DNA from: a bacterium
GTDB taxonomy: Bacteria > Patescibacteriota > Minisyncoccia > Phycocordibacterales > VMGT01
Direction of reading: 5' to 3'
NCBI GenBank assembly: GCA_030697645.1
Contig: JAUYPI010000015.1
Coordinates: 15,583-79,582 of the forward strand
DNA: 64,000 nucleotides
The position numbers were made by a program, and so were the translations under genes. This document shows positions 2,091 through 64,000 of the stretch, one piece after another (within the stretch, counting starts at the first letter, position 1; each line of letters starts with the position of its first letter). The notes below the pieces were generated by a model. The model searched no databases and was not told the DNA's origin. It worked only from the letters and a program-made list of their open reading frames with translations.

Positions 2091-2177
2091 GTGTAGAAAG
2101 TAGAAAGTGGAGAGTAGAAAGTAGGACGACGTTCGTCGTCTACAATCTACCCTCTACCTTCCACTCTCTACTCTCTA
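2091..2177. repeat. Hairpin-array element, arm unit GTAGAAAGT / ACTCTCTAC, core GGACGACGTTCGTCGTC
   Basis: Direct copies of (a)gtagaaagt, a palindromic GC core, then inverted copies (ctctac/ctctactct). The element ends 7 nt before the rpsT ATG. Confidence 0.7.
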
Positions 2178-3375: not shown

Positions 3376-4479
3376 TTAATAGAAAAGAGTTCTAAAAACT
3401 GGCTGGAACAGGCTGGTGTCTTTCCGACACGCGACCCGGAAGTCACAGCTCGGGCAATTGGGCTCCACGAGCTCGGGGCAGTAGGAACGTGCTCGCCAAA
3501 GCGCGTGATCCACAAATGCCATCACACGCCTTAGACGTGGGAGCCGGGCTCGCACAATCGTGGCAAGCGTATGGACGGCCTGATATGTCGCCCGGCGGAT
3601 CGCTTCCTCGATCGTTGCGGTGACAAAGAGTCGGGCACTATTTGCGGTGCGGAGTACTTTCGCGAGTAGCACCATGCCGCTCCTGAGGCAGACGCGCATG
3701 ATGTGGTAGTCAATGATCGGCCGCAGGTCTTCCCTCTCTGCCGGGACGAGAAAACGCTCGGGCCGCGAAATCATCTCCATCGCAAAGAGCCCGATTTTTT
3801 TTTGGAGCGGGTCCTCCCAAAAACCGGGGACCCACGAGAAGAGCCGATACAATGCTGCGAGCGGCTGTGCAGCGAGGTTTGCGACTTCGATCATTTTTTT
3901 CGGGCTGTTGAGGCCCGACAGTGCGGCACGAAAGTATGCGCCATAGCGGTGCGTGAGCGCGACGCGTGCCTCGATGTCAGGAAACGGCATGGGACCAAGA
4001 TCATCCGAGAGGAGATGCTGGATCGCAACGCCGCTCATGTGCGCGAGGCGGTAGGGCTCGAAGATGCCGCGGTCGCGGTCAAATTCCTGTTTGAGTGCCG
4101 CGAAGAGCAAGGCTGACCCGCGGTACTCTTTGCCTCTGATGTGGCCGGTGATGGGACTCTCATAGCGGCCGTCGCTTGCATACCAAAACCCGTGGTTTTG
4201 AACACAGCTGAATGCGAAAAAGTTTACTGCCTCACTGTCGCCTAGCCCCGGGAAGAGGTCGGCGGCGTAGGTGCGGACGCCATTTTTCTCGGAGCTGTGA
4301 AAGTCCATGCCGCCGCCGCTCTCCGGTATCGGCATCGAGCACAAGACATTTGCAATTTTTTCAATCCGTCGCGGGTTGGTTCGCGCGAGCATGGGTATCT
4401 CCTTGTGGACCGGAACGTCTTGGGTGTTCGATTCTGATGAGACAATAGCCGATTTTTCACCTTCTGACAACCCGCGCAT
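3376..4479 (-). CDS. Hypothetical protein, possibly DUF2419 / queuosine-salvage (Qng1)-like
   Basis: 367-aa ORF with consistent codon usage. Weak resemblance to Qng1 signature segments (SFW..G.Y.G..AL.AA, IDYHIMRV). The C-terminal Cys cluster CPELVEPNCPSCDFRVAC is not typical of Qng1. The family assignment is from memory, not a search. Confidence 0.4.
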   Translation of the reverse strand: MRGLSEGEKSAIVSSESNTQDVPVHKEIPMLARTNPRRIEKIANVLCSMPIPESGGGMDFHSSEKNGVRTYAADLFPGLGDSEAVNFFAFSCVQNHGFWYASDGRYESPITGHIRGKEYRGSALLFAALKQEFDRDRGIFEPYRLAHMSGVAIQHLLSDDLGPMPFPDIEARVALTHRYGAYFRAALSGLNSPKKMIEVANLAAQPLAALYRLFSWVPGFWEDPLQKKIGLFAMEMISRPERFLVPAEREDLRPIIDYHIMRVCLRSGMVLLAKVLRTANSARLFVTATIEEAIRRATYQAVHTLATIVRARLPRLRRVMAFVDHALWRARSYCPELVEPNCPSCDFRVACRKDTSLFQPVFRTLFY

Positions 4480-4588: not shown

Positions 4589-5320
4589 CTAGTGCGCGAA
4601 CGCAACGCATATGACACGACGCACTCCAGCGGCGCGGAGCGCGCGGCGGGCTTCAGCGAGTGTGGCGCCGGTGGTGGTGACGTCGTCGAGGACGATCACA
4701 TCGCGGCCGCGGACCGAGGCAGCAGAACGCACAGCAAAACTGCCGACGACATTTCGGAGTCGCTCGGCGCGGTCTCTGAGCGTGGTTTGCGGTTTTGTGT
4801 CGCGAATTTTGTACAGCGTGTGTGGCGTGTGCGTACACATTTCGCCGAGGAGCGAGGCAGTACGCGAGGCGAGAAGTGCGAGGGGGTCGCCACGCTCCCT
4901 TGCGCGCCTCGGTGAGGCGGGGATTGAGACGATGAGCGGTTGCGAGAGCGCGCCGAAGAGCGCGCGCTCCGCGATCTCCTCGGCGAGCACAGCGGCAAGG
5001 CACTCCGCAGCGAGCGCGATCGCCCTCGGCGAGGTGCGGTACTTCATTTCCCAGACGAGTCGCCGTACGAGCGGATCGCGGTACGCGAAGAGCGCTTCAA
5101 TATCAGCGCCGATCTTCTCTGCGCGCGGAGAGAGCTTCAAGAGTGCTTCGGCTGTGAGAGATCGGAGAGATCGACTTGCCGCTCTCGGCGGGGCGAGCAC
5201 GTCGAGTGTGTGCTCGGCGAGGGCATGAAGAACAGCCACAGCGCGTTGGACTTTTCCCCACAGAGGCGCGTTTTTCTTTTGCCGCGTTTTTGCAGCGGAT
5301 GGTATACTAGATGGTATCAC
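4589..5320 (-). CDS. comF: ComF-family protein (phosphoribosyltransferase domain)
   Basis: C-terminal PRTase motif VIVLDDVTTTGATL with a basic N-terminal region. It sits next to the pilus cluster, as comF often does. Confidence 0.7.
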   Translation of the reverse strand: MIPSSIPSAAKTRQKKNAPLWGKVQRAVAVLHALAEHTLDVLAPPRAASRSLRSLTAEALLKLSPRAEKIGADIEALFAYRDPLVRRLVWEMKYRTSPRAIALAAECLAAVLAEEIAERALFGALSQPLIVSIPASPRRARERGDPLALLASRTASLLGEMCTHTPHTLYKIRDTKPQTTLRDRAERLRNVVGSFAVRSAASVRGRDVIVLDDVTTTGATLAEARRALRAAGVRRVICVAFAH

Positions 5321-5410
5321 GGCAGCTCGAGCGGGGAGCGAGCAGAGGACAGACGGCGCACCCGCGGTACCTTATTATACTCCGCGGGGAGGGCATAAAC
5401 CCGAAACACC

Positions 5411-6616
5411 ATGACGTTCGGCGACTTACTTAGAACGCTGATGAAGGTCGTACGACGGCCGGTCTTTGGCACGCGTGGGCCGAGCGTTCTCGGAATAGAC
5501 TTCGGCACTTCCTCACTCAAGGTCGTGCAGGCGTATAAACAAGGCGGCAAGGCAATGCTTGAGACGTATGGGGCTGTCGCGCTTGGACCCTACGGCGGTG
5601 TCGAGGTCGGGCAAGCGACGCGTCTTAGTCCCGAGCAGGCGGCAGCGGCCCTTACAGACCTCTTCCGGGAGGCAAATGTAACGACGCGCCAGTGCGCAGT
5701 CGCGATCCCGCTCTCGGCGAGCCTCGTCTCGTTTATGCAACTGCCCGAGGTCTCCGAGAATGAGCTCACTACGATGGTGCCACTCGAGGCGCGTAAGTAC
5801 ATCCCGGTACCGCTCTCTGAGGTCTCGCTCGACTGGATGATCGTACCGGAGGTGCCCGCCGCGGGGGACCGGGCAGGGGGCGTTCAAGAGGGTGGCGCGT
5901 TTGGAGACAGTGACGCTCACACGCCCCGCTCGGCTTCGGGCGGGGCGAGAGAGGCAGAACGACGTAGTGCCGAACGCGTGGGTGTGCTTGTGGTCGCCAT
6001 TCACAACGAGGAGCTTGCACTCTACCGCGCGATTGGGAGAGCCGCCGCGCTCGCTGTGCATTTTGTGGAAGTGGAGATTTTTAGCGCGGTGCGCGCGGTA
6101 CTCCGACAGGGGATGGAGGTGGTGCTCGTGGTTGACGTCGGCGGACACACCACAAAGATGTATCTTGTGGAACGCGGTATAGTGAAGGGTACGCACAGTA
6201 TCAATCGCGGCTCGCAGCACATTACTGAGGCGCTCGCGCGTTCTCTCGGGATCCCCCTTACTGAGGCCGAGGAGCTGAAGCGGAGTGGCAAGATTGCGGA
6301 GAAGATGGGCGCTCGTACGCTCGAGGAGCTCGTGCCGACCCAGGTAGACCTTATTTTTGCAGAGATACGACGGCTTTTGATTCAGTATCAGCACCGCTCT
6401 CTGAGGGTTGTCTCGCACGCGATTTTTATCGGCGGCGGTGCGCTTCTTCCCGGTTTCCTCGATCGGGCGCGCGCGGTACTGCCGACCGAGGTCTCGCTCG
6501 GCGATCCGTTCCAGAAGCTCGAGGCGCCGGCGTTCCTTGAGGACGTGCTGCGACAGGCAGGGCCGGAGTTTGCGGTGGCCACGGGCTTGGCTCTCCGTGC
6601 GCTGGCGGAACAGTAG
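5411..6616 (+). CDS. pilM: Type IV pilus assembly protein PilM (actin-like ATPase)
   Basis: N-terminal LGIDFGTSSLKVV motif and a two-domain actin/FtsA-like fold pattern (VLVVDVGGHTTK). First gene of the pil cluster. Confidence 0.85.
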   Translation: MTFGDLLRTLMKVVRRPVFGTRGPSVLGIDFGTSSLKVVQAYKQGGKAMLETYGAVALGPYGGVEVGQATRLSPEQAAAALTDLFREANVTTRQCAVAIPLSASLVSFMQLPEVSENELTTMVPLEARKYIPVPLSEVSLDWMIVPEVPAAGDRAGGVQEGGAFGDSDAHTPRSASGGAREAERRSAERVGVLVVAIHNEELALYRAIGRAAALAVHFVEVEIFSAVRAVLRQGMEVVLVVDVGGHTTKMYLVERGIVKGTHSINRGSQHITEALARSLGIPLTEAEELKRSGKIAEKMGARTLEELVPTQVDLIFAEIRRLLIQYQHRSLRVVSHAIFIGGGALLPGFLDRARAVLPTEVSLGDPFQKLEAPAFLEDVLRQAGPEFAVATGLALRALAEQ

Positions 6617-6733
6617 CTCAAAAATTTTCAATTATCAATTTTATAATTTTTAATCAATTTTCAATTACTCAATTTTCAAACACGACGTCGTCCGTTATTG
6701 AAAATTGAAAATTGTAAATTGAAAATTATCACC
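6617..6733. repeat. Hairpin-array element (arm AATTTTCAAT / ATTGAAAATT, core CAAACACGACGTCGTCCGTT)
   Basis: Fills the whole pilM-pilN intergenic region and ends 3 nt before the ATG at 6734. The core contains the palindrome ACGACGTCGT. Confidence 0.8.
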
Positions 6734-7399: not shown

Positions 7400-7514
7400 C
7401 TCAATTATCAATGTTCAATTTTAAATTTTCAATCAATTTTCAATTACCAAATTTTCAAACACGACGTCGTCCGTTATTGAAAATTGAAAATTGTAAATTG
7501 AAAATTAATAATCC
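7400..7514. repeat. Hairpin-array element (same arm and core as 6617..6733)
   Basis: caattatcaatgttcaattttaaattttcaatcaattttcaattacc - caaacacgacgtcgtccgtt - attgaaaattgaaaattgtaaattgaaaatt. Ends 7 nt before the pilO ATG. Confidence 0.8.
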
Positions 7515-8136: not shown

Positions 8137-8328
8137 ATGAAAATTTTCAATTTTCAATTTTGCAATTTTCAATCAATTTCCAAGTACTCAATTTTCAAAC
8201 ACGACGCCGTTCGTCATTAAGTCATTGCAGCATTGAAAATTTATTGAAAATTGTAAATTGAAAATTATGAACACCGGCGCTTGGTTTGACATTTGAGTTT
8301 GCTCCAATTTCGGATTTTAATTTGTTGT
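8137..8328. repeat. Hairpin-array element (AATTTTCAAT family)
   Basis: aattttcaattttcaattttgcaattttcaatcaatttccaag... core caaacacgacgccgttcgtcatt ... attgaaaatttattgaaaattgtaaattgaaaatt. Ends at the ATG of the next gene. Confidence 0.75.
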
Positions 8329-8739: not shown

Positions 8740-8927
8740 AGCGAAAAGCGAAAAACAACAGCACAAAATTTCAAGCTCCAACCAACAAGCTCCAAACAAA
8801 TTCCAATGATTCAAATCTCAATCTCGAAACACGCCGGTTTGAGATTTGAGATTTGGAATTTGAGGTTTATTTGGAAGTTGTTTTTTGGAATTTGGAAATT
8901 CGTTTTCTTTGCGCTTTTCATTTCTGT
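8740..8927. repeat. Composite hairpin-array element (outer arms GCAAAGCGAAAA, inner arms ATTTCCAA / TTGGAAAT, core GAAACACGCCGGTTTGAG)
   Basis: Nested inverted repeats: acgcaaagcgaaaagcgaaaaacaacagcacaaaat...ttccaa... core ...ttggaatttgag...ggaaattcgttttctttgcgc. Ends at the pilB ATG (8928). Confidence 0.75.
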
Positions 8928-11121: not shown

Positions 11122-11232
11122 TTTTCAATGCTCAATTTTCAATCAATTTACAATGGTCCAATTTTCAAACACGACGTCGTTCATCTATTGAAACATTGAA
11201 AATTGAAAATTAGAAATTGAAAATTTTCGTCT
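11122..11232. repeat. Hairpin-array element (AATTTTCAAT family)
   Basis: ttaattttcaatgctcaattttcaatcaatttacaatggtcc - aattttcaaacacgacgtcgttcatct - attgaaacattgaaaattgaaaattagaaattgaaaatt. Ends 9 nt before the pilT ATG. Confidence 0.8.
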
Positions 11233-12359: not shown

Positions 12360-12531
12360 GCACGAGAAATTTTCAATTTCCAATTTTCAATTTCCAATCA
12401 ATTTTTAATTACTCAATTTTCAAACACGTCGTCGCCATTGAGTCATTGAAGCATTGAAAATTTATTGAAAATTGCTCATTGAAAATTGAAAATTAAAAAT
12501 GTCTGCCTTTGGTTTCCCCCTTTAGCATTTC
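12360..12531. repeat. Hairpin-array element (AATTTTCAAT family)
   Basis: gaaattttcaatttccaattttcaatttccaatcaatttttaattactcaattttcaaacacgtcgtcgccattgagtc ... attgaaaatttattgaaaattgctcattgaaaattgaaaatt. Confidence 0.75.
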
Positions 12532-14812: not shown

Positions 14813-14860
14813 CTCACCTATACCGTCGCGGCTTGCTCGGCGGTTCGTGATTAAATTTTT

Positions 14861-14902
14861 GCATTTGCAATAACTCTGCGATCGCAGAGTTATTGCAAAT
14901 GC
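14861..14902. promoter_or_regulatory. 42-bp perfect palindrome GCATTTGCAATAACTCTGCG-AT-CGCAGAGTTATTGCAAATGC (GCGATCGC centre)
   Basis: Perfect dyad between the secF stop and gmhA. A near-identical copy lies at 40032..40073. It could be an operator or a terminator stem. Confidence 0.5.
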
Positions 14903-15025
14903 CACAAGTGACCACGCGTTGCTTTTCGCGTTTGCTTTTAGAGAGCGCAGCTGCTACTCTGCCTCATAGGTTGACCTTTTTTAAGATATATACGAGCCGA
15001 AACAACGAGACGAGGAGGAGAGCCC

Positions 15026-20582: not shown

Positions 20583-20764
20583 AGCTAGGCGGTGTCTTCA
20601 AGGCATGCGCGCGAGAGTTCTTTGACAACAGAATAAGCATACACACAAGACAAAGCAAAAACAAAACGTCTATTCCTTAAAAAAACAGAGAGCAGAAGAA
20701 GTTGTTCCTTCTTTTGTTCCGTCCACAAATAGGGAGGTTGGAGATACTCCAACTTCTATAATTT

Positions 20765-20803
<39 letters not shown>

Positions 20804-20851
20804 GATAAGGCATGCAAGTCATACGGGCCGCACCTCATTGCATTCGGTGCG

Positions 20852-20990
20852 GAATTTTCAATTTTCAATTTTACAATTTTCAAATAATTTCCAATGATTA
20901 AATTTCCAATTTCCAAACACGACGTCGTCGGCGTTTGAAAATTGACCCATTGAAAATTTATTGAAAATTGAAAATTGATAATTGAAAATT
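20852..20990. repeat. Hairpin-array element (AATTTTCAAT family) inserted in the 16S V1 helix
   Basis: Same arm unit and core (caaacacgacgtcgtcggcgtt) as the pil intergenic copies. Flanked by hairpins ccgcacctcattgcattcggtgcgg and gccgcaccgagtgtggcgaggtgcggc. Confidence 0.8.
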
Positions 20991-21190
20991 CCGCCGCACC
21001 GAGTGTGGCGAGGTGCGGCTAGTGGCGAACGAGGCAGTAATACGCAGGAACGTACCCTGGAGACGGGCATAACCAGCCGAAAGGTTGGCTAATTCCCGAT
21101 GGTCCGAGCACATATTTTTGGAGAAAAACAAAAGGCGCATCCTGTACCTGTATAGATACTTTGGATGCGCCCTGCAACATTGAGCGGTTT

Positions 21191-21310
21191 CTAGAGGAAC
21201 AGGAAAGTAGCAATCATTACGGCGATGATACCGACTAAGACCCAAGACATCCAACGAAGCTGACTTGGGCCATAGTCTATTCTTCCGCTCTGTCCTCTCG
21301 CGATTTTCAT
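21191..21310 (-). CDS. Candidate 39-aa single-TM peptide antisense to the 16S V2 insertion
   Basis: aggaggTCGTCatg SD-ATG, then MKIARGQSGRIDYGPSQLRWMSWVLVGIIAVMIATFLFL. It is below the 60-aa cut-off of the ORF track. Coordinates are approximate to a few nt. Confidence 0.3.
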   Translation of the reverse strand: MKIARGQSGRIDYGPSQLRWMSWVLVGIIAVMIATFLFL

Positions 21311-22157
21311 GACGACCTCCTTTTTCGCTGAAGAAAGAAAAGCATAGGGGTCTATATATTGTCAAGTATCTTACTTGGCTTCCAAAAATATGTGCTCGGT
21401 AAAGGAGCAATCTGCTCCGGGAGCGGCCTGCGGGCTATCAGCTAGTTGGTGGGGTAACGGCCTACCAAGGCTCTGACGGCTAGGGGGGGTGAGAGCCCGA
21501 TCCCCGCCGATGACACTGCGACACGGGTCATACACCTACGGGTGGCAGCAGCCGAGAATATTCGACAATGGGCGAAAGCCTGATCGAGCGACGCCGCGTG
21601 GTGGATGAAGCACTTCGGTGCGTAAACACCTTTTATGAGGGAAGAAGTTCGCCGCACCTCATTGCATTCGGTGCGGACATTTCGATATATCGAAATTTCG
21701 AAATATCGAAATGTCCGCCGCACCGAGTGCAGCGAGGTGCGGCGGATTGACGGTACCTCATGAATAAGGGGCTCCTAATCACGTGCCAGCAGGAGCGGTA
21801 ATACGTGAGCCCCAAGCGTTATCCGGAATCACTGGGCGTAAAGGGTGTGTAGGCGGCCGCGTTAGTCCTCCGTTAAATCCCACGGCTCAACCGTGGAGCT
21901 GCGGAGGATACGGCGCGGCTTGAGGGCGCGAGAGGTGTGCGGAACTCACGGTGTAGGGGTGAAATCCGTTGATATCGTGGGGAACACCAAAAGCGAAGGC
22001 AGCACACTGGCGCGCCCCTGACGCTGAAACACGAAAGCGTGGGTAGCGAAGCAGATTAGATACCTGCGTAGTCCACGCCCTAAACTCTGTCCGCTAGCTT
22101 TTCGGAGTATCGACCCTCTGGGAGGCGAAGCTAACGCGTTAAGCGGACCGCCTGGGA

Positions 22158-22189
<32 letters not shown>

Positions 22190-22722
22190 AGACGGGGACC
22201 AGCACAAGCGGTGGATCATGTGGTTCAATTCGATGGTAAACGAAGAACCTCACCAGGGCTTGAAATCCAGATGAACTCGCCTCGAAAGGGGTGCGGCCTT
22301 CACAAGAGGCATCTGGACAGGTGCTGCATGGTTGTCGTCAGTTCGTGGCTTAAGTTGTTCCCTTTAGTGGGGTAACGAACGCAACCCCCGTCGCCTGTTA
22401 TACGTGTCAGGCGAGACTGCCCAGCCCAAAGTGCGGCTCACTTCGGTTCGCCGCAGAATCAAGAAGTATGAAGTATGAAGTATGGAAATGTACGAAGAAA
22501 AACCATAATTCATGATTCATAATTCTTGCTTCTGCATCGAGCGGAGCGAGATGCATTTCGGGCTGGGAGGAAGGCGGGGATGACGCCAAATCAGCATGGC
22601 CCTCTGACGCCCTGGGCTACACACGTGATACAATGGCCGGTACAACGGGTCGCGACGGGGTAACCCTGAGCCAATCCTTATAAAGCCGGCCTCAGTTCGG
22701 ATTGAGGTCTGCAACTCGACCT

Positions 22723-22757
<35 letters not shown>

Positions 22758-23610
22758 TATACTGCGGTGAATACGTTCTCTGGTCTTGTACTCACCGCCC
22801 GTCATGCTAAGGGAGCCGGGAATACCCGAAACCCCGCCCTTTGCTCGCGGAGCAAAGGGCGGGATATATCGAAATTTTGAAATATCGATATGTCCCGCCC
22901 TTTGTTCACTTCGTGAACAAAGGGCGGGGTTACGGTAAGCTCGGTGACAGGAGCAAAGTCGTTGAGACATACTGTCTTGTTGCGACCTATGTGAGCGATC
23001 ACATAGTAAAACCCAACTGATATCGGTGAACCCCAGCGTACACAATTCACAATTTCTAATTTCAATTTTGAATTAGTCATTGAGAATTCGTAGTTGCGCC
23101 AGCTGGGCAATACCGAGGGAAGCCCACTAGGAGCTAGTTTTTTAACTGGTAACTAGTTGCGGCCCCGTAGAGACTTCCTGCACTTTTCTAGAAGTAGAAG
23201 GCGCAGGGGATGGCGTTGAAAAATTCACGCTATAAAACGTTGGCCCCAGCCGTAAAGTTTCCTAAAGAAACATTACGGCTGGGTGAAGATATAGTCCGTG
23301 CCTCAATGTAAATTGAGGGTAACACATGAACAAGGCACCGGTAGCGGAAGCTGTTGGTGGAATCATTCCTAGATCCCGTCCCAAGGCGCGTAAAGCGCGC
23401 CATGTTTAAATATTTAAATGTTTAAACATGGCCAAAATTCGCTTTGCGAATTTTGGCGAGGACTGATCAGGTCGGTCCGAGGGTGGAAGTTTTTCTTCCA
23501 TTCCTCGGAATCATGCTGTGGCTGTCAGCTAAACCAGCTAGCGGAGTTAGATGCAAATTTAGCTTCCAACCGTGGACGGAACAAAAGAGGGAACAAAAAA
23601 CACTCAAAAA

Positions 23611-30974: not shown

Positions 30975-31191
30975 GCCAAGCGGAAAACGCAAAACGAAAA
31001 ACAACAGTGCAAAGCGCAAAAAATTTCCAATTTCCAAAAAACAATTTCCAAACGAATCTCAAATCTCAAGTTCCAAATCACAAACGTTCGTGTTTGGAAC
31101 TTGAACTTTGAATCATTGGAATTTGTTTGGAGCTTGTTTTTTGGAGCTTGAAATTTTATTCTGTTGTTTTGCGCTTTTCGTTTTGCGCTGC
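30975..31191. repeat. Composite hairpin-array element (outer GCAAAACGAAAA / inner ATTTCCAA, core CAAACGTTCGTGTTTGG)
   Basis: Same nested architecture as 8740..8927 and 54286..54520. Ends at the ATG (31194) of the next gene. Confidence 0.75.
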
Positions 31192-34943: not shown

Positions 34944-35351
34944 TTGCGCTATTTGTGTAGCCGGGGTTTCGCAGCAAGCAGCAAGCGCCAAGCAATAAGC
35001 ACGGACGGTACATTTGTGTTTGCCGCTTGTTCGATGGTGCTTACTGCTCGGACAACTATGCACAAAGCCCTCCAGCTTCTCCGCCTCATCCCTCGCGGCA
35101 GAGTGGTGACCTACAAAGAGCTCGCGCGCGCCTGCGGCACCTCGCCGCGCGCCGTGGGACGGATACTTGCAGGGAATAAAGAGCCAGCGAAGTATCCTTG
35201 CTACAAAGTCGTCTCTTCGCGAGGCGCGCTCACGGGCTACAGCGCCCCGGGCGGCCTCACTCGTAAGCGCGAGCTCCTCGAGCGCGACGGCGCCACCTTC
35301 GCTCGAGACGGCCGCGTGCTGCCGGAGCATTTTTATCGTTTTGAAGAATGA
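34944..35351 (+). CDS. Methylated-DNA-protein-cysteine methyltransferase DNA-binding-domain protein (Ogt/MGMT C-terminal domain only)
   Basis: HTH VVTYKELARACG and active-site-like YPCYKVV (consensus PCHRV), with the Cys retained. The real start is probably internal (MHKALQLL, about 35058), giving about 98 aa. Confidence 0.5.
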   Translation: MRYLCSRGFAASSKRQAISTDGTFVFAACSMVLTARTTMHKALQLLRLIPRGRVVTYKELARACGTSPRAVGRILAGNKEPAKYPCYKVVSSRGALTGYSAPGGLTRKRELLERDGATFARDGRVLPEHFYRFEE

Positions 35352-36448
35352 GCAGTGATCTTAAACCTAAAGTATTCGTCGCGATGTCTGGGGGCGTGGA
35401 CAGCTCTCTCGCGGCGGCGCTTCTTCAGGAGCGCGGGTTTGACGTGCATGGAGCGTTCATCATGACGTGGCAGATTCCGGGCTTGCCATGCAGCGCGGCC
35501 GAGGACCGTCGCGACGCGATGCGCGTCGCGGCGAAGCTCAACATTCCATTCCATACATTTGATTTCGCCGAGGAGTACAAGCGCGGCGTTGTGGACTACA
35601 TGCTCCGCGAGTATGCGGCAGGGCGGACGCCGAACCCGGACGTGATGTGCAATAAAGAGATTAAGTTCGGTGCGTTTCTGCGGAAGACGCGGGAGATGGG
35701 GGCGGAGTACATGGCGACGGGGCACTATGCGCGCTTAGAAAGAATCAAGAATCATGAATCAAGAATCATGAATCGACTCCTCATGTCCAAAGATACAAAC
35801 AAAGATCAGACGTACTTTCTTTGGATGCTGGGGCAGGAGGCGCTCTCGCGCACACTGTTTCCGATCGGCGATTATCTGAAGAGCGAGGTACGGGAGATGG
35901 CGCGGGAGCGGGGGTTGATCACGGCTGACAAACGAGATAGTCAAGGGCTTTGCTTCCTCGGCAAGATTGACGTGCGGGCATTTCTCGCTCGGCACTTGGG
36001 AGCGAAGGAAGGCAGCGTGCTTGATGCCGCGAGCGGTAAGGCGATCGGGGTTCATGCAGGAGCGGCGCTCTATACGCTCGGACAGCGGCACGGCTTTAGG
36101 GTTGAACACGAAACACCCCGGAGCGAGCCGCTCTATGTCGTGTCGCGCGACATTGCCGCGAATACGATTACGGTCGCGTCGCGAGCGGCCGTACTTCGCG
36201 TTCCCTCTGCGCGTTGCGAAGTTGATCTCGGTATATGCAACTGGATCGGCGAGGCGCCGGAGGCAGGCGGTGTCTACCTCGCCCGTATCAGACACCGCGG
36301 CGAGCTTATGCCGTGTCGAATTGAGCCATTTGAGCGAGATATGAGCCGCACACGAGTGCTTTTTGAAACGCCACTCCTCGCCGCCTCCGGCCAGTCGCTC
36401 GTGCTCTATGAAGGAGAGCGCGTCGTTGGAGGAGGGGTGATTGGATGA
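35348..36448 (+). CDS. mnmA: tRNA-specific 2-thiouridylase MnmA
   Basis: PP-loop VAMSGGVDSS and downstream MnmA blocks. Contains an in-frame insertion of a short tandem repeat (35740..35772) encoding IKNHESRIMNR. Confidence 0.85.
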   Translation: MSSDLKPKVFVAMSGGVDSSLAAALLQERGFDVHGAFIMTWQIPGLPCSAAEDRRDAMRVAAKLNIPFHTFDFAEEYKRGVVDYMLREYAAGRTPNPDVMCNKEIKFGAFLRKTREMGAEYMATGHYARLERIKNHESRIMNRLLMSKDTNKDQTYFLWMLGQEALSRTLFPIGDYLKSEVREMARERGLITADKRDSQGLCFLGKIDVRAFLARHLGAKEGSVLDAASGKAIGVHAGAALYTLGQRHGFRVEHETPRSEPLYVVSRDIAANTITVASRAAVLRVPSARCEVDLGICNWIGEAPEAGGVYLARIRHRGELMPCRIEPFERDMSRTRVLFETPLLAASGQSLVLYEGERVVGGGVIG

Positions 36449-40018: not shown

Positions 40019-40031
40019 AAGGTGGAGCGAG

Positions 40032-40073
40032 AAATTTGCAATAACTATGCGACCGCATAATTATTGCAAATTT
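40032..40073. terminator. Second copy of the TTTGCAATAAC-TATGCG-CGCATA-ATTATTGCAAA palindrome plus T tract
   Basis: aaatttgcaataactatgcg-ac-cgcataattattgcaaattt followed by ttatttt, directly after rplU. Paralog of 14861..14902. Confidence 0.5.
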
Positions 40074-40120
40074 TTATTTTCTGTGCAGATCCGCGTTCCG
40101 TCAGCGTACTTCTGCGACTT

Positions 40121-40961: not shown

Positions 40962-41816
40962 ATGAAAAACCAAGAAAAGTCATCCCCTCTCGAATCCCTA
41001 ACCATTAACTTCCGACCCGGACACCTCCACCCACTCACGCAGGTGATGGAGCGGATCGCGGCTGTCTTTACTGCACTTGGGTTCGCGATTGCAGACGGGC
41101 CGGAGATCGAAACTGAGTATTACAATTTCGACGCGCTCAATATCCCCGCCGATCATCCGGCGCGTGATATGCAGGACACTTTTTGGCTCGCGGAGCCGAA
41201 AAGTGAATTTCCAATTTCCAAAAACCAATTTCCAAATACGACGAACGTCGAGCGCGCGGATGCCGGGGCAACGTCACAGAAACTTTTGCTCCGCACGCAC
41301 ATAAGCTCACTTCAGGTGCGTTATATGGAGGCACATGGACCGCCGTTTCGGATGATATCGAGTGGGCGGGTGTATCGGCACGAGGCGACAGATGCGACGC
41401 ATGAGGCCCAATACCACTACACGGAGGGGCTTGCCGTGGAGCAAAGCGCCTCGCTGGCGCAGTTGAAGTACGTGCTGGACGCATTTGCAAAAAGCATTTT
41501 CGGCGAGAGTATGAAGAGTCGTTTTCGCCCTGCGTACTTTCCGTTTGTCGAGCCGGGGGTTGAAGTGGACCTCTCGTGCGTCGCGTGTGGCGGCGTTGGT
41601 GGGGCGTGCAGCGTGTGCAAGGGCACCGGCTGGGTGGAGGTGCTTGGCGCTGGCATGGTGCACCCGCAGGTGCTCACGAACGGCGGCATTGACCCCGCGC
41701 TCTGGCGCGGTTATGCATTCGGCGTTGGCGTTGATCGCATCGCCATGCTTCTCTACGGGATTCCGGATATACGATTGTTTTATAACGGCGACCTGCGCGT
41801 GGTGAATCAGTTTTGA
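40962..41816 (+). CDS. pheS: Phenylalanine-tRNA ligase alpha subunit, short form
   Basis: Class II motifs (FRMISSGRVYRHEATDATHEAQYHYTEGL, FPFVEPGVEVD, GAGMVHPQVL). Carries an in-frame insertion at 41199..41250. Confidence 0.85.
   Translation: MKNQEKSSPLESLTINFRPGHLHPLTQVMERIAAVFTALGFAIADGPEIETEYYNFDALNIPADHPARDMQDTFWLAEPKSEFPISKNQFPNTTNVERADAGATSQKLLLRTHISSLQVRYMEAHGPPFRMISSGRVYRHEATDATHEAQYHYTEGLAVEQSASLAQLKYVLDAFAKSIFGESMKSRFRPAYFPFVEPGVEVDLSCVACGGVGGACSVCKGTGWVEVLGAGMVHPQVLTNGGIDPALWRGYAFGVGVDRIAMLLYGIPDIRLFYNGDLRVVNQF
41199..41250. repeat. Half hairpin-array (ATTTCCAA units plus core remnant) inserted in-frame in pheS
   Basis: gtgaatttccaatttccaaaaaccaatttccaaatacgacgaacgtcgag encodes SEFPISKNQFPNTTNVE. 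Confidence 0.7.
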
Positions 41817-41850
41817 TGAGAAAGCCAAGTAGAGAGTAGAAAGTAGAAAC

Positions 41851-54285: not shown

Positions 54286-54520
54286 AACTGAGTGCAAAAT
54301 GTAAAGTGCAAAGCGCAAAACAACAGTACAAAATTCCAAGCTCCAACCAACAATTTCCAAACAAATTTCAAATTCCAATGCATCAAATCTCAAACACGCA
54401 CGTCGTGTTTGGAAATTGGATTTTGAGTATTGTGATTTATTTGGAGCTTGTTTTTTGGAATTTGGAAATTCGTTTTGCTCATTGCGCTGTTGTTTTTCGC
54501 TTTGCGAGTGCGAGCGGAAC
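54286..54520. repeat. Composite hairpin-array element (outer CAAAGCGAAAAACAACAG, inner ATTTCCAA, core CAAACACGCACGTCGTGTTTGG)
   Basis: Same three-layer nesting as 8740..8927 and 30975..31191. Confidence 0.75.
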
Positions 54521-59393: not shown

Positions 59394-59435
59394 GACGAGA
59401 GCGTCGCGGTGGAGTTATCCACACCACTTAAATTT

Positions 59436-59760
59436 TCAAATTATCAATTTTCAATTTCCAATCAATTTTCCAATGACACAATTTTCAAACACGACGTCGT
59501 TCGTCATTGAAATATTAGACCTCTCCAGAAAGTCATTTCTACTGCAATTTTTGGTTTTCGGCTGCGACTTCGTCAGACGTCGCAAAATGATTCTCGCCGT
59601 ACATCCAGTACGCCGTCGAATCATTTTGCTCGTCTTCCTCGTCTCGCTCGAAAACCAAAAATTTCGTCGCGAAATGACTTTTTGGAGAGGTCTATTGAAA
59701 ATTCATTGAAAATTGATAATTGGAAATTGAAAATTATGAGTCCGTTTTGGTGATTATGAT
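59436..59760. repeat. Hairpin-array element (AATTTTCAAT family) carrying a 190-nt internal palindromic cargo
   Basis: Arms and core caaacacgacgtcgttcgtcattgaaat, then a nested palindrome gacctctccagaaagtcatttc...ttttggttttcg...cgaaaaccaaaaa...gaaatgacttttggagaggtc, then attgaaaattcattgaaaattgataattggaaattgaaaatt. Confidence 0.75.
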
Positions 59761-62682: not shown

Positions 62683-62839
62683 CCTGTCCACTATCTTGCT
62701 TTCGAGATGAAATTTTCTGATTTTGAGCGAGACGAAGTCAAAAATTGCGAGGAATATCGAGATATTTCGAGAAATTTTTGACAAGTCGCAGCCAAAATCA
62801 GGAAATTTCAGGCCGGAATGAAGATAGTGGATAGGCTCT
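62683..62839. mobile_element. MITE-like element with 18-bp perfect terminal inverted repeats
   Basis: gagcctgtccactatctt ... aagatagtggataggctc flanking about 120 nt of AT-rich non-coding sequence with internal repeats (aaatttttgac / gtcaaaaattg). Confidence 0.55.
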
Positions 62840-62848
62840 AAGTGAAAT

Positions 62849-63046
62849 ATGACTCCGGAAAAACAGTACGAAAAGTTCGCCGAATGGTTCGAGCGCGCAG
62901 CGCTTGTCTTTCTCGCATCGTTGGTTGTGCAGCAGATTGTCTCTGGGGTATCGCCATGGAGCCGGTCGGTACTTTTAGGAATGATAGCGGCCGGAGCGCT
63001 CTACGCTGCGGCATATGGCCTTGTTCGTAAGAGTATGGTACGTTAA
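62849..63046 (+). CDS. Small hypothetical membrane protein (65 aa)
   Basis: Two hydrophobic helices (AALVFLASLVVQQIV, LLGMIAAGALYAAAYGL). Confidence 0.3.
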   Translation: MTPEKQYEKFAEWFERAALVFLASLVVQQIVSGVSPWSRSVLLGMIAAGALYAAAYGLVRKSMVR

Positions 63047-63050
63047 ATAT

Positions 63051-63149
63051 ATGGATGGTTTTACTGCCATATATATATTTGGCATAATTCTTGGCCTTGC
63101 TGGCTTGTACCTTGCGTATTGGCCTGAGAAAAAACACGGTCATCCGTAG
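63051..63149 (+). CDS. Candidate 32-aa single-TM peptide
   Basis: ATG at 63051: MDGFTAIYIFGIILGLAGLYLAYWPEKKHGHP. Below the ORF-track size cut-off. Lies between the previous small ORF and ndk. Confidence 0.2.
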   Translation: MDGFTAIYIFGIILGLAGLYLAYWPEKKHGHP

Positions 63150-63179
63150 ATCGTGGAGGGCGTTGCACGTTTCCCCATT

Positions 63180-63764
63180 ATGCAAAAACTCCGCGAAGAA
63201 CAAACGTTTCTCCTGATCAAGCCCGACGGCGTCCGCAAGGGGCTCGTCGGCGAGGTGCTGAAGCGCATCGAGCAGCGCGATCTCAAGATCGTCGCGCTGG
63301 AGATGTTTGCGGCCTCGCGTGAGCAGGTGGACGAGCACTACCCGAAGGACCCTGCGTGGGTGCGCCGCCTCGGCGAGAAGTCGCTCGCGACGTACCACAA
63401 GTACGGCATGGATGCTGCCGCCGAGCTCGGCACGGACGACCCCGACGAGATAGGTAAGATGGTGCGGCGCTGGCTCGTGGACTATATGGTCTCCGCACCG
63501 CTTGTGCGTATGGTTGTGCAGGGTATTCACGCGGTTGACATGGTGCGCAAGATTTGCGGGCCGACGATGCCCTACATCGCCGACATGGGGACAATCCGCG
63601 GCGATTTTTCCGCTGACTCTCCCGCGATTGCAAACAGCGAGAAGCGGGCGGTAATGAACCTCGTGCATGCCTCGGAGACTCCGGAGGAGGCGGCGCACGA
63701 GATCGGATTTTGGTTCGGCGACCGAAAGGCGTTTCAGTACAAACGCTTCGGCATTGATGAATGA
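63180..63764 (+). CDS. ndk: Nucleoside diphosphate kinase (long form)
   Basis: TFLLIKPDGVRKGLVGEVLKRIE and active-site N..H.S block (NLVHASETPEEAAHEIGFWF). Start taken at MQKLREEQ (63180). Confidence 0.75.
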   Translation: MQKLREEQTFLLIKPDGVRKGLVGEVLKRIEQRDLKIVALEMFAASREQVDEHYPKDPAWVRRLGEKSLATYHKYGMDAAAELGTDDPDEIGKMVRRWLVDYMVSAPLVRMVVQGIHAVDMVRKICGPTMPYIADMGTIRGDFSADSPAIANSEKRAVMNLVHASETPEEAAHEIGFWFGDRKAFQYKRFGIDE

Positions 63765-63829
63765 TGGGTAGGGAGGCGAGGGATTTTCAGGCAGTTCCCA
63801 GAGAGCGAGCAGCAGGATTTTTGAAGCAT

Positions 63830-64000
63830 GAATCATGAATTAAGAAGCATGGAGTCCGTTCCCACACTTCATGGTTCACGACCCATGATTCATACTTCAT
63901 GCTCCATACTGCATGACTGCACGTCCCATACTTCATACTTCTTGATTCATGCTTCACGTCCCATGATTCATGCTTCATGATCCATGCTTCAAGTCAGGCA
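63830..64000. repeat. Array of degenerate CATGATTCAT / CTTCATACTTCAT units running to the window edge
   Basis: catgaatcatgaattaagaagcatgg ... ccatgattcatacttcatgctccatactgcatgac ... ccatacttcatacttcttgattcatgcttc ... Same unit family as 22470..22540 and 35740..35772. Confidence 0.6.

Follow-up and report, generated by a model that had tools for sequence, protein, structure and literature searches.

A half hairpin-repeat array carried in frame in a variable loop of pheS in a Patescibacteria genome

The gene pheS encodes the alpha subunit of phenylalanyl-tRNA synthetase (PheRS). We analyzed pheS in a stretch of 64,000 nucleotides (nt) of the Patescibacteria assembly GCA_030697645.1 (contig JAUYPI010000015.1, positions 15,583 to 79,582; hereafter the window), and found that a loop of the protein is encoded in part by DNA resembling a hairpin-repeat family that is dispersed over the same window. 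The most likely explanation, we propose, is that a dispersed hairpin repeat of this genome gave rise to the insert, which is translated and tolerated as a passenger. The insert would be a decayed in-frame copy, of which only the left arm and the core of the family remain in the PheS loop, and it would be translated as a disordered, hydrophilic surface loop with probably no function of its own. The insert appears to have been present already in the ancestor common to the window and its relative L001, and the loop would have been remodelled onward in the clade by repeat turnover.

The pheS gene of the window is an open reading frame (ORF) of 284 amino acids (aa) of the short type of the Candidate Phyla Radiation (CPR), without the N-terminal coiled coil. 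The protein contains PF01409 and is a 100% match to P0001, a 'phenylalanine--tRNA ligase subunit alpha' from a metagenome-assembled genome; its named best relatives belong to Parcubacteria/Paceibacterota and all contain PF01409. HMMER matched it to PheS proteins in PDB with an E value of 8e-78, and the best Foldseek matches of its predicted structure were PheRS alpha chains (TM 0.66-0.72). All invariant PheS columns are kept, including D72, T73, F74, R111, S115 and the FPFVEP block. The features of the gene and of the inserted segment are as follows.

40962-41816, plus strand: pheS, phenylalanyl-tRNA synthetase alpha subunit
41177-41189, plus strand: native arm of a 13-nt fold-back palindrome, CACTTTTTGGCTC, in the (D)-T-F-W-L codons that end motif 1
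41190-41192, plus strand: hairpin loop GCG (Ala77) of 3 nt, the first lineage-specific codon
41193-41205, plus strand: inverted copy of the native arm, GAGCCgAAAAGTG, in the E-P-K-S codons, forming the 5' edge of the insert
41206-41237, plus strand: left A+C-rich arm of the heptamer hairpin-repeat family, AATTTCC AATTTCC AAAAACC AATTTCC AAAT, encoding (E)FPISKNQFPN
41238-41250, plus strand: complete GC core palindrome ACGACGAACGTCG (CGACG / AA / CGTCG), encoding TTNV
41251-41279, plus strand: remaining lineage-specific loop, ERADAGATSQ, with no repeat signature and no right arm, partly aligning with the longer loop of L001
41851-43935: pheT, directly 3' of pheS

The segment 41199-41250 reads aaaagtg, then the heptamers of the left arm, then ACGACGAACGTCG. 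It is translated in frame as S81-EFPISKNQFPNTTNV-E97. Tandem Repeats Finder (TRF) reported a period-7 array at 41206-41235, and 7 is the best period in the loop; the period-7 signal of the whole loop, half of which is non-repeat, only equals the maximum of the remaining pheS. An earlier note on this DNA had described 41199-41250 as an in-frame half hairpin array inside pheS, built of ATTTCCAA units and a core remnant. The half array in frame is borne out by the sequence, the ORF, the family matches and the missing right arm, and so is its repeat nature. The unit, however, is the heptamer AATTTCC and not the 8-mer (three such heptamers and the palindrome lie at 41206-41250), the core is a complete palindrome and not a remnant, and the lineage-specific segment is wider, covering codons 77-106 (about 41190-41279) and including a fold-back 5' edge that the note had not seen.

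Hairpin arrays fill most intergenic spacers of the window regardless of the orientation of the flanking genes. Their anatomy is an A+C-rich heptamer arm, a GC palindromic core and a complementary G+T-rich arm, and ATTTCCAA occurs 26 times in the window as compared with 1.9 +/- 1.3 times in shuffles. The copies that match the pheS segment are as follows.

31022-31052, plus strand: closest intergenic copy of the pheS left arm (blastn 30/31, E 1.8e-10), within a full hairpin array at about 31018-31150
8901-8868, minus strand: second intergenic copy of the arm (blastn 31/34), within a hairpin array at about 8772-8897
54471-54438, minus strand: third intergenic copy of the arm (blastn 30/34), within a hairpin array at about 54345-54475
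2093-2177: hairpin array of GTAGAAA units, with a core (2127-2139, minus strand) identical to the 13-nt pheS core

The arm-core junction CCAATTTCCAAA[T/C]ACGACG is also found at 20906-20924 and 54425-54401, and the arm matches extend to a non-periodic AAAAA(C/A)C spacer and a terminal AAATA. The pheS copy carries the A+C-rich 7-nt arm, the CAAA(C/T)ACGACG-type junction and the GC palindromic core of the family, and 12-mers of the pheS loop have a density of 4.6 matches per 10 kb elsewhere in the window as compared with 0.40 per 10 kb across other contigs totalling 2.2 Mb (about 11-fold). Because the arm, the junction and the core match and the 12-mers are dense in the window, we take the segment, as judged from its nucleotides, to be a true copy of the window's repeat family and not a look-alike. 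A search for repeat pairs found no complementary G+T-rich right arm within 150 nt of the left arm. The pheS region folds no better than shuffles (z -0.9), with only the small core hairpin formed and the left arm unpaired; a cryptic right arm 3' of the core was ruled out by the same fold and repeat search. Since no complementary right arm is present, the pheS copy is a truncated half member. The earlier note is thus right both in deriving the nucleotides of the segment from the hairpin-array family and in calling it a 'half'.

The insert lies between two conserved blocks of PheS. In HMMER alignments the solved PheS proteins of P. aeruginosa and S. haemolyticus match residues 19-76 and 106/107-284 of the window protein, with 0-3 residues of their own between the blocks, so that the alignment splits at residues 77-106 where the window carries the insert. 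In PheRS of T. thermophilus (PDB 1pys, 1b70, 2iy5), an idiosyncratic loop of 18 residues, TGEGFRLEGPLGEEVEGR, occupies the identical position between DTFW and LLRTHTS, with no repeat origin visible at the protein level. In an AlphaFold model (29-sequence alignment, mean predicted local distance difference test score, pLDDT, of 75), residues 82-104 have a pLDDT below 50, and the low-confidence stretch sits between the strands 73-75 (TFW) and 109-111 (LLR). The insert site is a length-variable loop that connects the DTFW strand ending motif 1 with the LLRTHTS strand of the catalytic domain, and it tolerates length, since the active, crystallised Thermus enzyme has 18 residues there. A loop at the surface is compatible with the fold, as the predicted confidence is low between two conserved strands and the homologues have gaps of 0-3 residues, or 18 in Thermus. 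The earlier note had placed the segment between conserved PheS blocks and raised the question of a loop; the alignment agrees with the former, and the model would put the insert in a loop of low predicted confidence.

Close relatives give an estimate of the age of the insert. Four lineages, the window among them, have 87-93% core identity (87-90% for L003 and L005), and in all of them repeat DNA starts at one and the same codon after E/D-P-K-x. Their loops are composed as follows.

Window: AATTTCC arm, then the CGACG-AA-CGTCG core
L001: AATTTCC arm as in the window (36/39 nt), followed by a longer GC hairpin unlike the window's core and by ACCAGCA-type heptamers
L003: AAATCCG/AAATTCG/AAATTCA heptamers throughout, without a core
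L005: AAATCCG units, then a TCCGCC-GGCT-GGCGGA core and further A+C-rich heptamers

The arm is 92% identical between the window and L001 (36/39 nt) versus 86% of nucleotides in the remaining gene, and 11 of its 13 third codon positions are identical versus 69% in the remaining gene. The arm, which has diverged no more than the rest of the gene, was therefore inherited from the common ancestor of the two. The parallel switch of both tandem units between AATTTCC and AAATCCG is not explicable by ordinary point substitution and implies replacement, conversion or re-amplification. The loop peptides of the close relatives are unlike one another. In the nearest outgroup, L168 (73% core identity), the loop spans 12 aa and is free of repeats. 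Identical insert DNA is present in two independent read-set assemblies, and a closely related form in two metagenomes of the Joint Genome Institute (JGI), L001 and L002. The contig of L001 also carries an IS200-like Y1 transposase gene (813-1181), for which tblastn found no homologue in the 64-kb window (best E 0.6), and which was dropped as a mobiliser. In L168 a gene of the 23S_rRNA_IVP/bAvd family lies between pheS and pheT (5377-5739); the window has none.

The same loop was compared across other Patescibacteria in 109 distinct PheS loops with DNA, a non-random sample taken from the matches listed in pattern-based contig searches and from individually fetched loci. Among the matches listed in the scans of genome and metagenome contigs, PheS was only 47-57% identical to that of the window, and the window's clade was not represented. 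The loop has at most 12 aa in 64 of the 109 and at least 20 aa in 25. The short loops of the solved proteins, of these 64 orthologues and of L168 mark the segment as an insertion relative to PheS at large and not as an ancestral feature. Of the 25 long loops, 15 show a period-7 signal stronger than any in the rest of their own gene and five have a strong hairpin fold (z below -3.5), with L052 having both, so that 19 of the 25 carry one signature or the other. These 19 are spread over several separate lineages, most of which have short-loop relatives in a nearest-neighbour comparison. In L102, a clean in-frame gain of 57 nt of an ACGCGGA-type half array was found relative to L074 (91% identical). 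Heptamer loops occur in L126 (AATTTCC x4), L167 (AATTTTC x2 followed by AATTTCC x2), L166, L150/L148/L130 and L169. Full in-frame hairpins were found in L009 (GCAGAT/ATCTGCG arms, dG -34.5), L008 (dG -39.3), L087 (dG -51) and L052 (ATGGTCC heptamers, dG -48), and GC cores are also present in the loops of L001, L005 and L031. Because insertion points shift by a few codons between lineages, the site looks like a permissive, hairpin-prone one rather than one of site-specific integration.

Reading frames may account for the half state of the insert. Among the window's intergenic arrays, 33 of 48 frames of the left arms and 17 of 48 frames of the right arms are free of stops, and the right arms carry TGA wherever the unit has TCA (GAAAATT, TTTGAGA). 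All 14 heptamer-only PheS loops have an A+C-rich sense strand (A+C 0.55-0.73), and in this orientation the repeats encode the residues N, Q, K, P, S, T and I. Such a hydrophilic composition promotes disorder. Right arms would usually bring stops and a full hairpin within an ORF would likely be costly, so that an arm plus core could be what survives selection. Such a stop-codon filter on arm orientation would leave a few tolerated full hairpins of other families unaccounted for.

Other loci of the survey and some further searches gave additional observations. The contig of L052 (titled Deltaproteobacteria) encodes a short CPR-like PheS with the loop hairpin at 5189-5272; 12-mers of this loop recur on the same contig at 6.8 per 10 kb as compared with 0.04 in other contigs, and a further heptamer array (CGGTCTT) lies in a 528-aa ORF; the repeat sites noted there besides the loop are 603-637, 791-805 and 3519-3534. 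In L027, AAAAGTG/AAAAGTT heptamers occur in the pheS loop (3673-3741) and in the 792-aa ORF directly downstream (5071-5111), which is probably pheT; this shared flavour would tie together two coding inserts of one genome. A strict period-7 census of 2.26 Mb, in a sample centred on pheS, returned 18 arrays. Of these, 12 lie in long ORFs, including 6 in pheS loops. The threshold of the census was too strict, and it is no measure of a coding versus intergenic preference. The translated array NFQFPIS x6, used as a protein query for other host families, matched only unannotated ORFs of 35-73 aa, some of them cyanobacterial.

The 5' edge of the insert is a reverse-complement copy of the sequence directly upstream. 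The two arms of this fold-back are 12/13 (92%) complementary around the 3-nt spacer, and the heptamers begin at the next base (41206). The same architecture was found in 11 orthologues (L001, L003, L005, L148, L130, L150, L126, L166, L167, L031 and L173) that cover at least six further lineages, always in the order of native codons, a 3-5-nt loop, the inverted copy and an A+C-rich array. Each of these 11 stems pairs perfectly, the synonymous variants of its own gene included: the Thr codons ACT, ACG and ACC pair with AGT, CGT and GGT, and in L001, L003 and L005 the inverted arm tracks synonymous variants of the Thr and the Leu/Ile codons. The CCA that pairs in L166 and L167 does not lie in frame, and the stem is still kept. 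Trp-anchored perfect stems of at least 8 bp occur in 9 of the 25 long loops versus none of the 84 shorter ones (shuffle null 0.28%), and the background is 4 such hairpins in 78,300 nt of other coding sequence of 110 pheS genes (5e-5 per nt). In eight aligned stems 94% of the cells pair and 5 of 13 pairs are changed on both sides, a partly circular count as the sequences were chosen for having the stem.

In quasi-palindrome template switching (the Ripley model), an inverted copy of adjacent sequence is made and imperfect palindromes become perfect. The 13-nt fold-back junction and the apparent 'covariation' of the stems match this process, and an entry by fold-back or template switch is suggested because the insert opens with an inverted copy of the preceding native codons. 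The edge could be the trace left by synthesis that folded back or switched template at a quasi-palindrome, a mechanism to which we give somewhat less than an even chance. Entry would then consist of this switch followed by copying from, or conversion by, the dispersed arrays; cut-and-paste transposition is a less likely route. Template-switch 'correction', which is established for quasi-palindromes, keeps perfect palindromes perfect without selection and would do so here as well, and a selected nucleic-acid structure at this edge is possible. To our knowledge, quasi-palindrome events have been described as point or short-tract changes in model bacteria and not as the way in which tens of nucleotides of repeat DNA enter an ORF.

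Copies of repeats also lie in two other genes of the window, as follows.

20758-23009: 16S rRNA gene (Rfam small subunit match), 2252 nt versus the 1533-nt model
20853-20990, plus strand: full hairpin array of the pheS-type family within the 16S rRNA gene, with the arm-core junction AATTTCCAATTTCCAAACACGACG
35740-35774, plus strand: in-frame array in mnmA (35348-36448), five AAGAATC/ATGAATC heptamers encoding ERIKNHESRIMNR

The 16S array lies within 174 nt of inserted sequence at the helix 6 tip (model positions 79-83) and folds as a near-perfect extension of this helix (dG -71.8 kcal/mol, z -9.7), and its arm-core junction is the closest to that of pheS. By analogy with intervening sequences, the array may be excised. 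One family has thus entered two essential genes at structurally permissive points, complete in an RNA helix and as a half in a protein loop. The mnmA array lies in a beta-hairpin and adds 5 residues relative to E. coli MnmA (2der). A second insertion in this 16S gene spans 275 nt (about 21114-21388, model positions 188-192), with the inverted repeat ACATATTTTTGG.../...CCAAAAATATGT closing it, and an Rfam group I intron match (51.8 bits) lies at the 3' end of the gene (about 22954-23318).

The earlier note had generalized from pheS and mnmA that the repeats land in essential genes while preserving the frame and act as a source of protein length variation. For pheS this stands. For mnmA it stands in the form of an in-frame heptamer array, which has no hairpin core and adds only about 5 residues. 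As a source of PheS length, the repeats are supported by the signatures in 19 of the 25 long loops, by their spread over several lineages and by the clean gain in L102. The note had considered that the segment might be common to all PheS homologues of the clade without nucleotide similarity to the repeats; it is absent from many homologues and similar to the repeats in its nucleotides.

Could the insert have arisen in place, by slippage of A-rich native sequence, with the likeness to the intergenic arrays due to a shared mutational bias and nothing copied? Heptameric simple repeats are over-represented in bacteria and ascribed to slippage (PMC4692102, PMC4679880). The loop of L139 resembles an expansion within a native K-P-E...E-N sequence, the window array contains CCAAAAA, the complement of native TTTTTGG, in a CCAAnnn phase, and the shift of insertion points by a few codons between lineages would also fit. 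However, the pheS copy and the dispersed copies have non-periodic detail in common (AAAAA(C/A)C, AAATA, the junction and the identical 13-nt GC palindrome), the GC cores in the loops of L001, L005 and L031 are not a product of A-rich heptamer slippage, and a single 7-nt slip destroys the reading frame. We consider an origin in place improbable.

Even less probable is a selected function, in which the loop or the 5'-edge hairpin contacts tRNA-Phe in place of the missing N-terminal coiled coil, or tunes pheS-pheT expression as a structure of the mRNA or DNA. The loop is hypervariable, of low complexity and missing in most orthologues, close relatives have unrelated peptides at that place, and the model predicts disorder. 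A function would fit the fold-back stem that is perfect across lineages with 5 of 13 pairs changed on both sides, although template-switch correction could keep such palindromes perfect without selection, and the covariation count has an ascertainment bias. The stem kept in L166 and L167 with CCA out of frame points to a constraint or a process on nucleic acid, the CPR PheS has no N-terminal domain, and the loop comes directly after a segment that is said to order on tRNA binding in T. thermophilus. An assembly chimera or a pheS pseudogene can be regarded as effectively refuted. The source is metagenome-assembled and repeats are prone to mis-assembly, but the identical DNA comes from two independent assemblies and the related L001 and L002 from two other samples, and the gene has an intact ORF with all invariant PheS columns and pheT directly after it.

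Several points weigh against a passenger derived from the genome's own dispersed repeat. The 64-kb window, which is the extent of genome coverage, showed neither a target-site duplication nor a transposase or another mobilising gene. Many loop repeats of other genomes are unmatched in the 3-20 kb of flanking contig; a repeat family of the genome's own was seen for the window and L052, and weakly for L139, L027 and L150, but not generally. Slippage can lengthen heptamer arrays in place, so some of the pheS array might be local. The 109 loops, taken from pattern-based searches, are no random sample, and the fold-back covariation count is inflated, as sequences were picked for having the stem. 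Translation of the insert and its lack of function are inferred. With these points considered, the passenger derived from the dispersed repeat remains our preferred explanation. A broader idea, to which we give a rather low probability, is that the PheS loop after DTFW is a recurrent capture site in Parcubacteria, where a quasi-palindrome of the conserved Phe-Trp codons and the codons after them nucleates fold-back or template-switch writing of heptamer repeats, taken from a genome-wide hairpin-array family, into the ORF. With the 16S rRNA helix that this family also extends and the spacers that it fills with promoter-like GAAAATT arms, it would amount to an undescribed CPR repeat system that remodels essential genes without a transposase.

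Other repeats and candidate functions of the arrays were noted in the window. The 34-nt pheS-pheT spacer contains a half array of AAGTAGA/GTAGAAA units without a core (41827-41849), similar in flavour to the left arm at 2093-2124. The largest hairpin array (59431-59735, about 305 nt, 110 predicted pairs, dG -130 kcal/mol) occupies a spacer between divergent genes and is crossed by a spurious 105-aa ORF. At the window edge, a tandem array of 21-nt (7 x 3) units (63868-63991, about 6 copies of TTCATACTTCACGACCCATGA) lies by the 5' end of the minus-strand ORF 62838-63836, and a CCCTAAA x4.9 array (2444-2477), whose unit is that of the plant-type telomere repeat, probably by coincidence, lies at the 3' end of ORF 2184-2456. 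A second, unrelated palindrome family, TTTGCAATAACT(C/A)TGCGA(T/C)CGCA(G/T)A(G/A)TTATTGCAAA, is present in two intergenic spacers (about 14855-14905 and 40030-40075), the latter about 900 nt upstream of pheS and after the L21 gene. Sigma-70-like sites that face outward (TTGAAA, 17 nt, GAAAAT/AATAAT) occur in GAAAATT-type arms, in several cases a short distance upstream of a gene start; by consensus match alone, they lie at 6698-6726, 7404-7432 (minus strand), 7477-7512, 8143-8172 (minus strand), 11196-11224 and 12465-12493. The first 20 kb has 22 promoter-like sites versus 9.3 expected, 8 of the 22 inside arrays, and the arrays might be combined promoter or terminator cassettes. Plain intrinsic terminators were rejected as an account of the intergenic arrays, which also occur between divergent genes (2053-2183, 7412-7514) and inside the 16S gene. 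A known RNA family or a T-box at pheS was rejected as well, as the Rfam gathering scan returned only the 16S rRNA, two tRNAs and the group I intron. Tandem interspersed guide RNA (TIGR) arrays, whose unit we take to be about 36 nt, were rejected in view of the 7-nt units in inverted arm pairs and the lack of spacers.

Among known systems, the closest functional analogue appears to be the Rickettsia palindromic elements (RPE), dispersed palindromes that are found between genes and in frame, compatibly with the fold, in many unrelated conserved genes (PMC10969869). Like RPE, the window family is multi-copy and occurs both between genes and within conserved genes (pheS and the 16S rRNA). Unlike RPE, which have a conserved consensus of about 100-150 bp, the arms here are variable heptamers, the host belongs to Patescibacteria/CPR, the encoded peptide is not conserved, the pheS copy is a half element and its 5' junction is a host fold-back. 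The pheS insert may work like an RPE by analogy, and we do not file it as a member; the two are set apart by the descriptions.

The tandem 7-nt periodicity of the pheS loop is shared with the heptameric simple sequence repeats of bacteria, which include the cyanobacterial short tandemly repeated repetitive (STRR) sequences, the GGGAATC-type repeats of Xanthomonas and Nostoc and the TAACTGA repeats of Beggiatoaceae. These are tandem 7-nt units at many loci, strongly intergenic, variable in length and sequence between close relatives and described as direct arrays (PMC4692102, PMC4679880). The arrays described here are instead inverted arm pairs around a GC core, and whereas the known repeats are rare in coding DNA, with one orientation usually having stops, here they are in frame in an essential ORF. 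Miniature inverted-repeat transposable elements and the repetitive extragenic palindromic (REP) sequences with their bacterial interspersed mosaic elements (ERIC, BOX, Correia; REPs mobilised by REP-associated tyrosine transposases, RAYT) are small, non-autonomous hairpin repeats with occasional in-frame fusions (PMC10969869). The window family is likewise made of small hairpin-forming repeats scattered between genes, but its copies are not near-identical, and unit flavour and core vary. No target-site duplication flanking the inverted-repeat arms is recognisable at pheS or at the clean insertion of L102, and tblastn with the Y1 transposase of L001 found no cognate transposase or RAYT in the 64-kb window. 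A place of the family among these elements is thus unsupported.

Insertions in CPR rRNA lie mostly at stem-loop tips, and the short non-intron ones are thought to be removed by RNase III (PMC11270868). The 16S array of the window, at a stem-loop tip, resembles these short non-intron insertions; the terms 'repeat', 'hairpin' and 'palindrom' do not appear in the text of that survey (PMC11270868). In the literature consulted, which is incomplete and gives no proof of novelty, no description was found of heptamer-arm hairpins or repeat-built PheS loops in Patescibacteria.

The results suggest that the length variation of a core translation enzyme of CPR is largely repeat-built, with independent events that can be placed on the tree. 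They would extend the phenomenon of 'selfish DNA in protein-coding genes' from Rickettsia to an unrelated, large and uncultured bacterial radiation with a different repeat architecture, and the fold-back junction suggests quasi-palindrome template switching as a route of repeats into ORFs. The 16S copy ties the protein inserts to the rRNA insertions of CPR, which are familiar but remain poorly understood. Heptamer arrays in essential genes are a frameshift hazard, and their persistence calls for an explanation. Such inserts inflate apparent divergence, and for marker genes of CPR they can distort alignments, phylogenies and domain calls.

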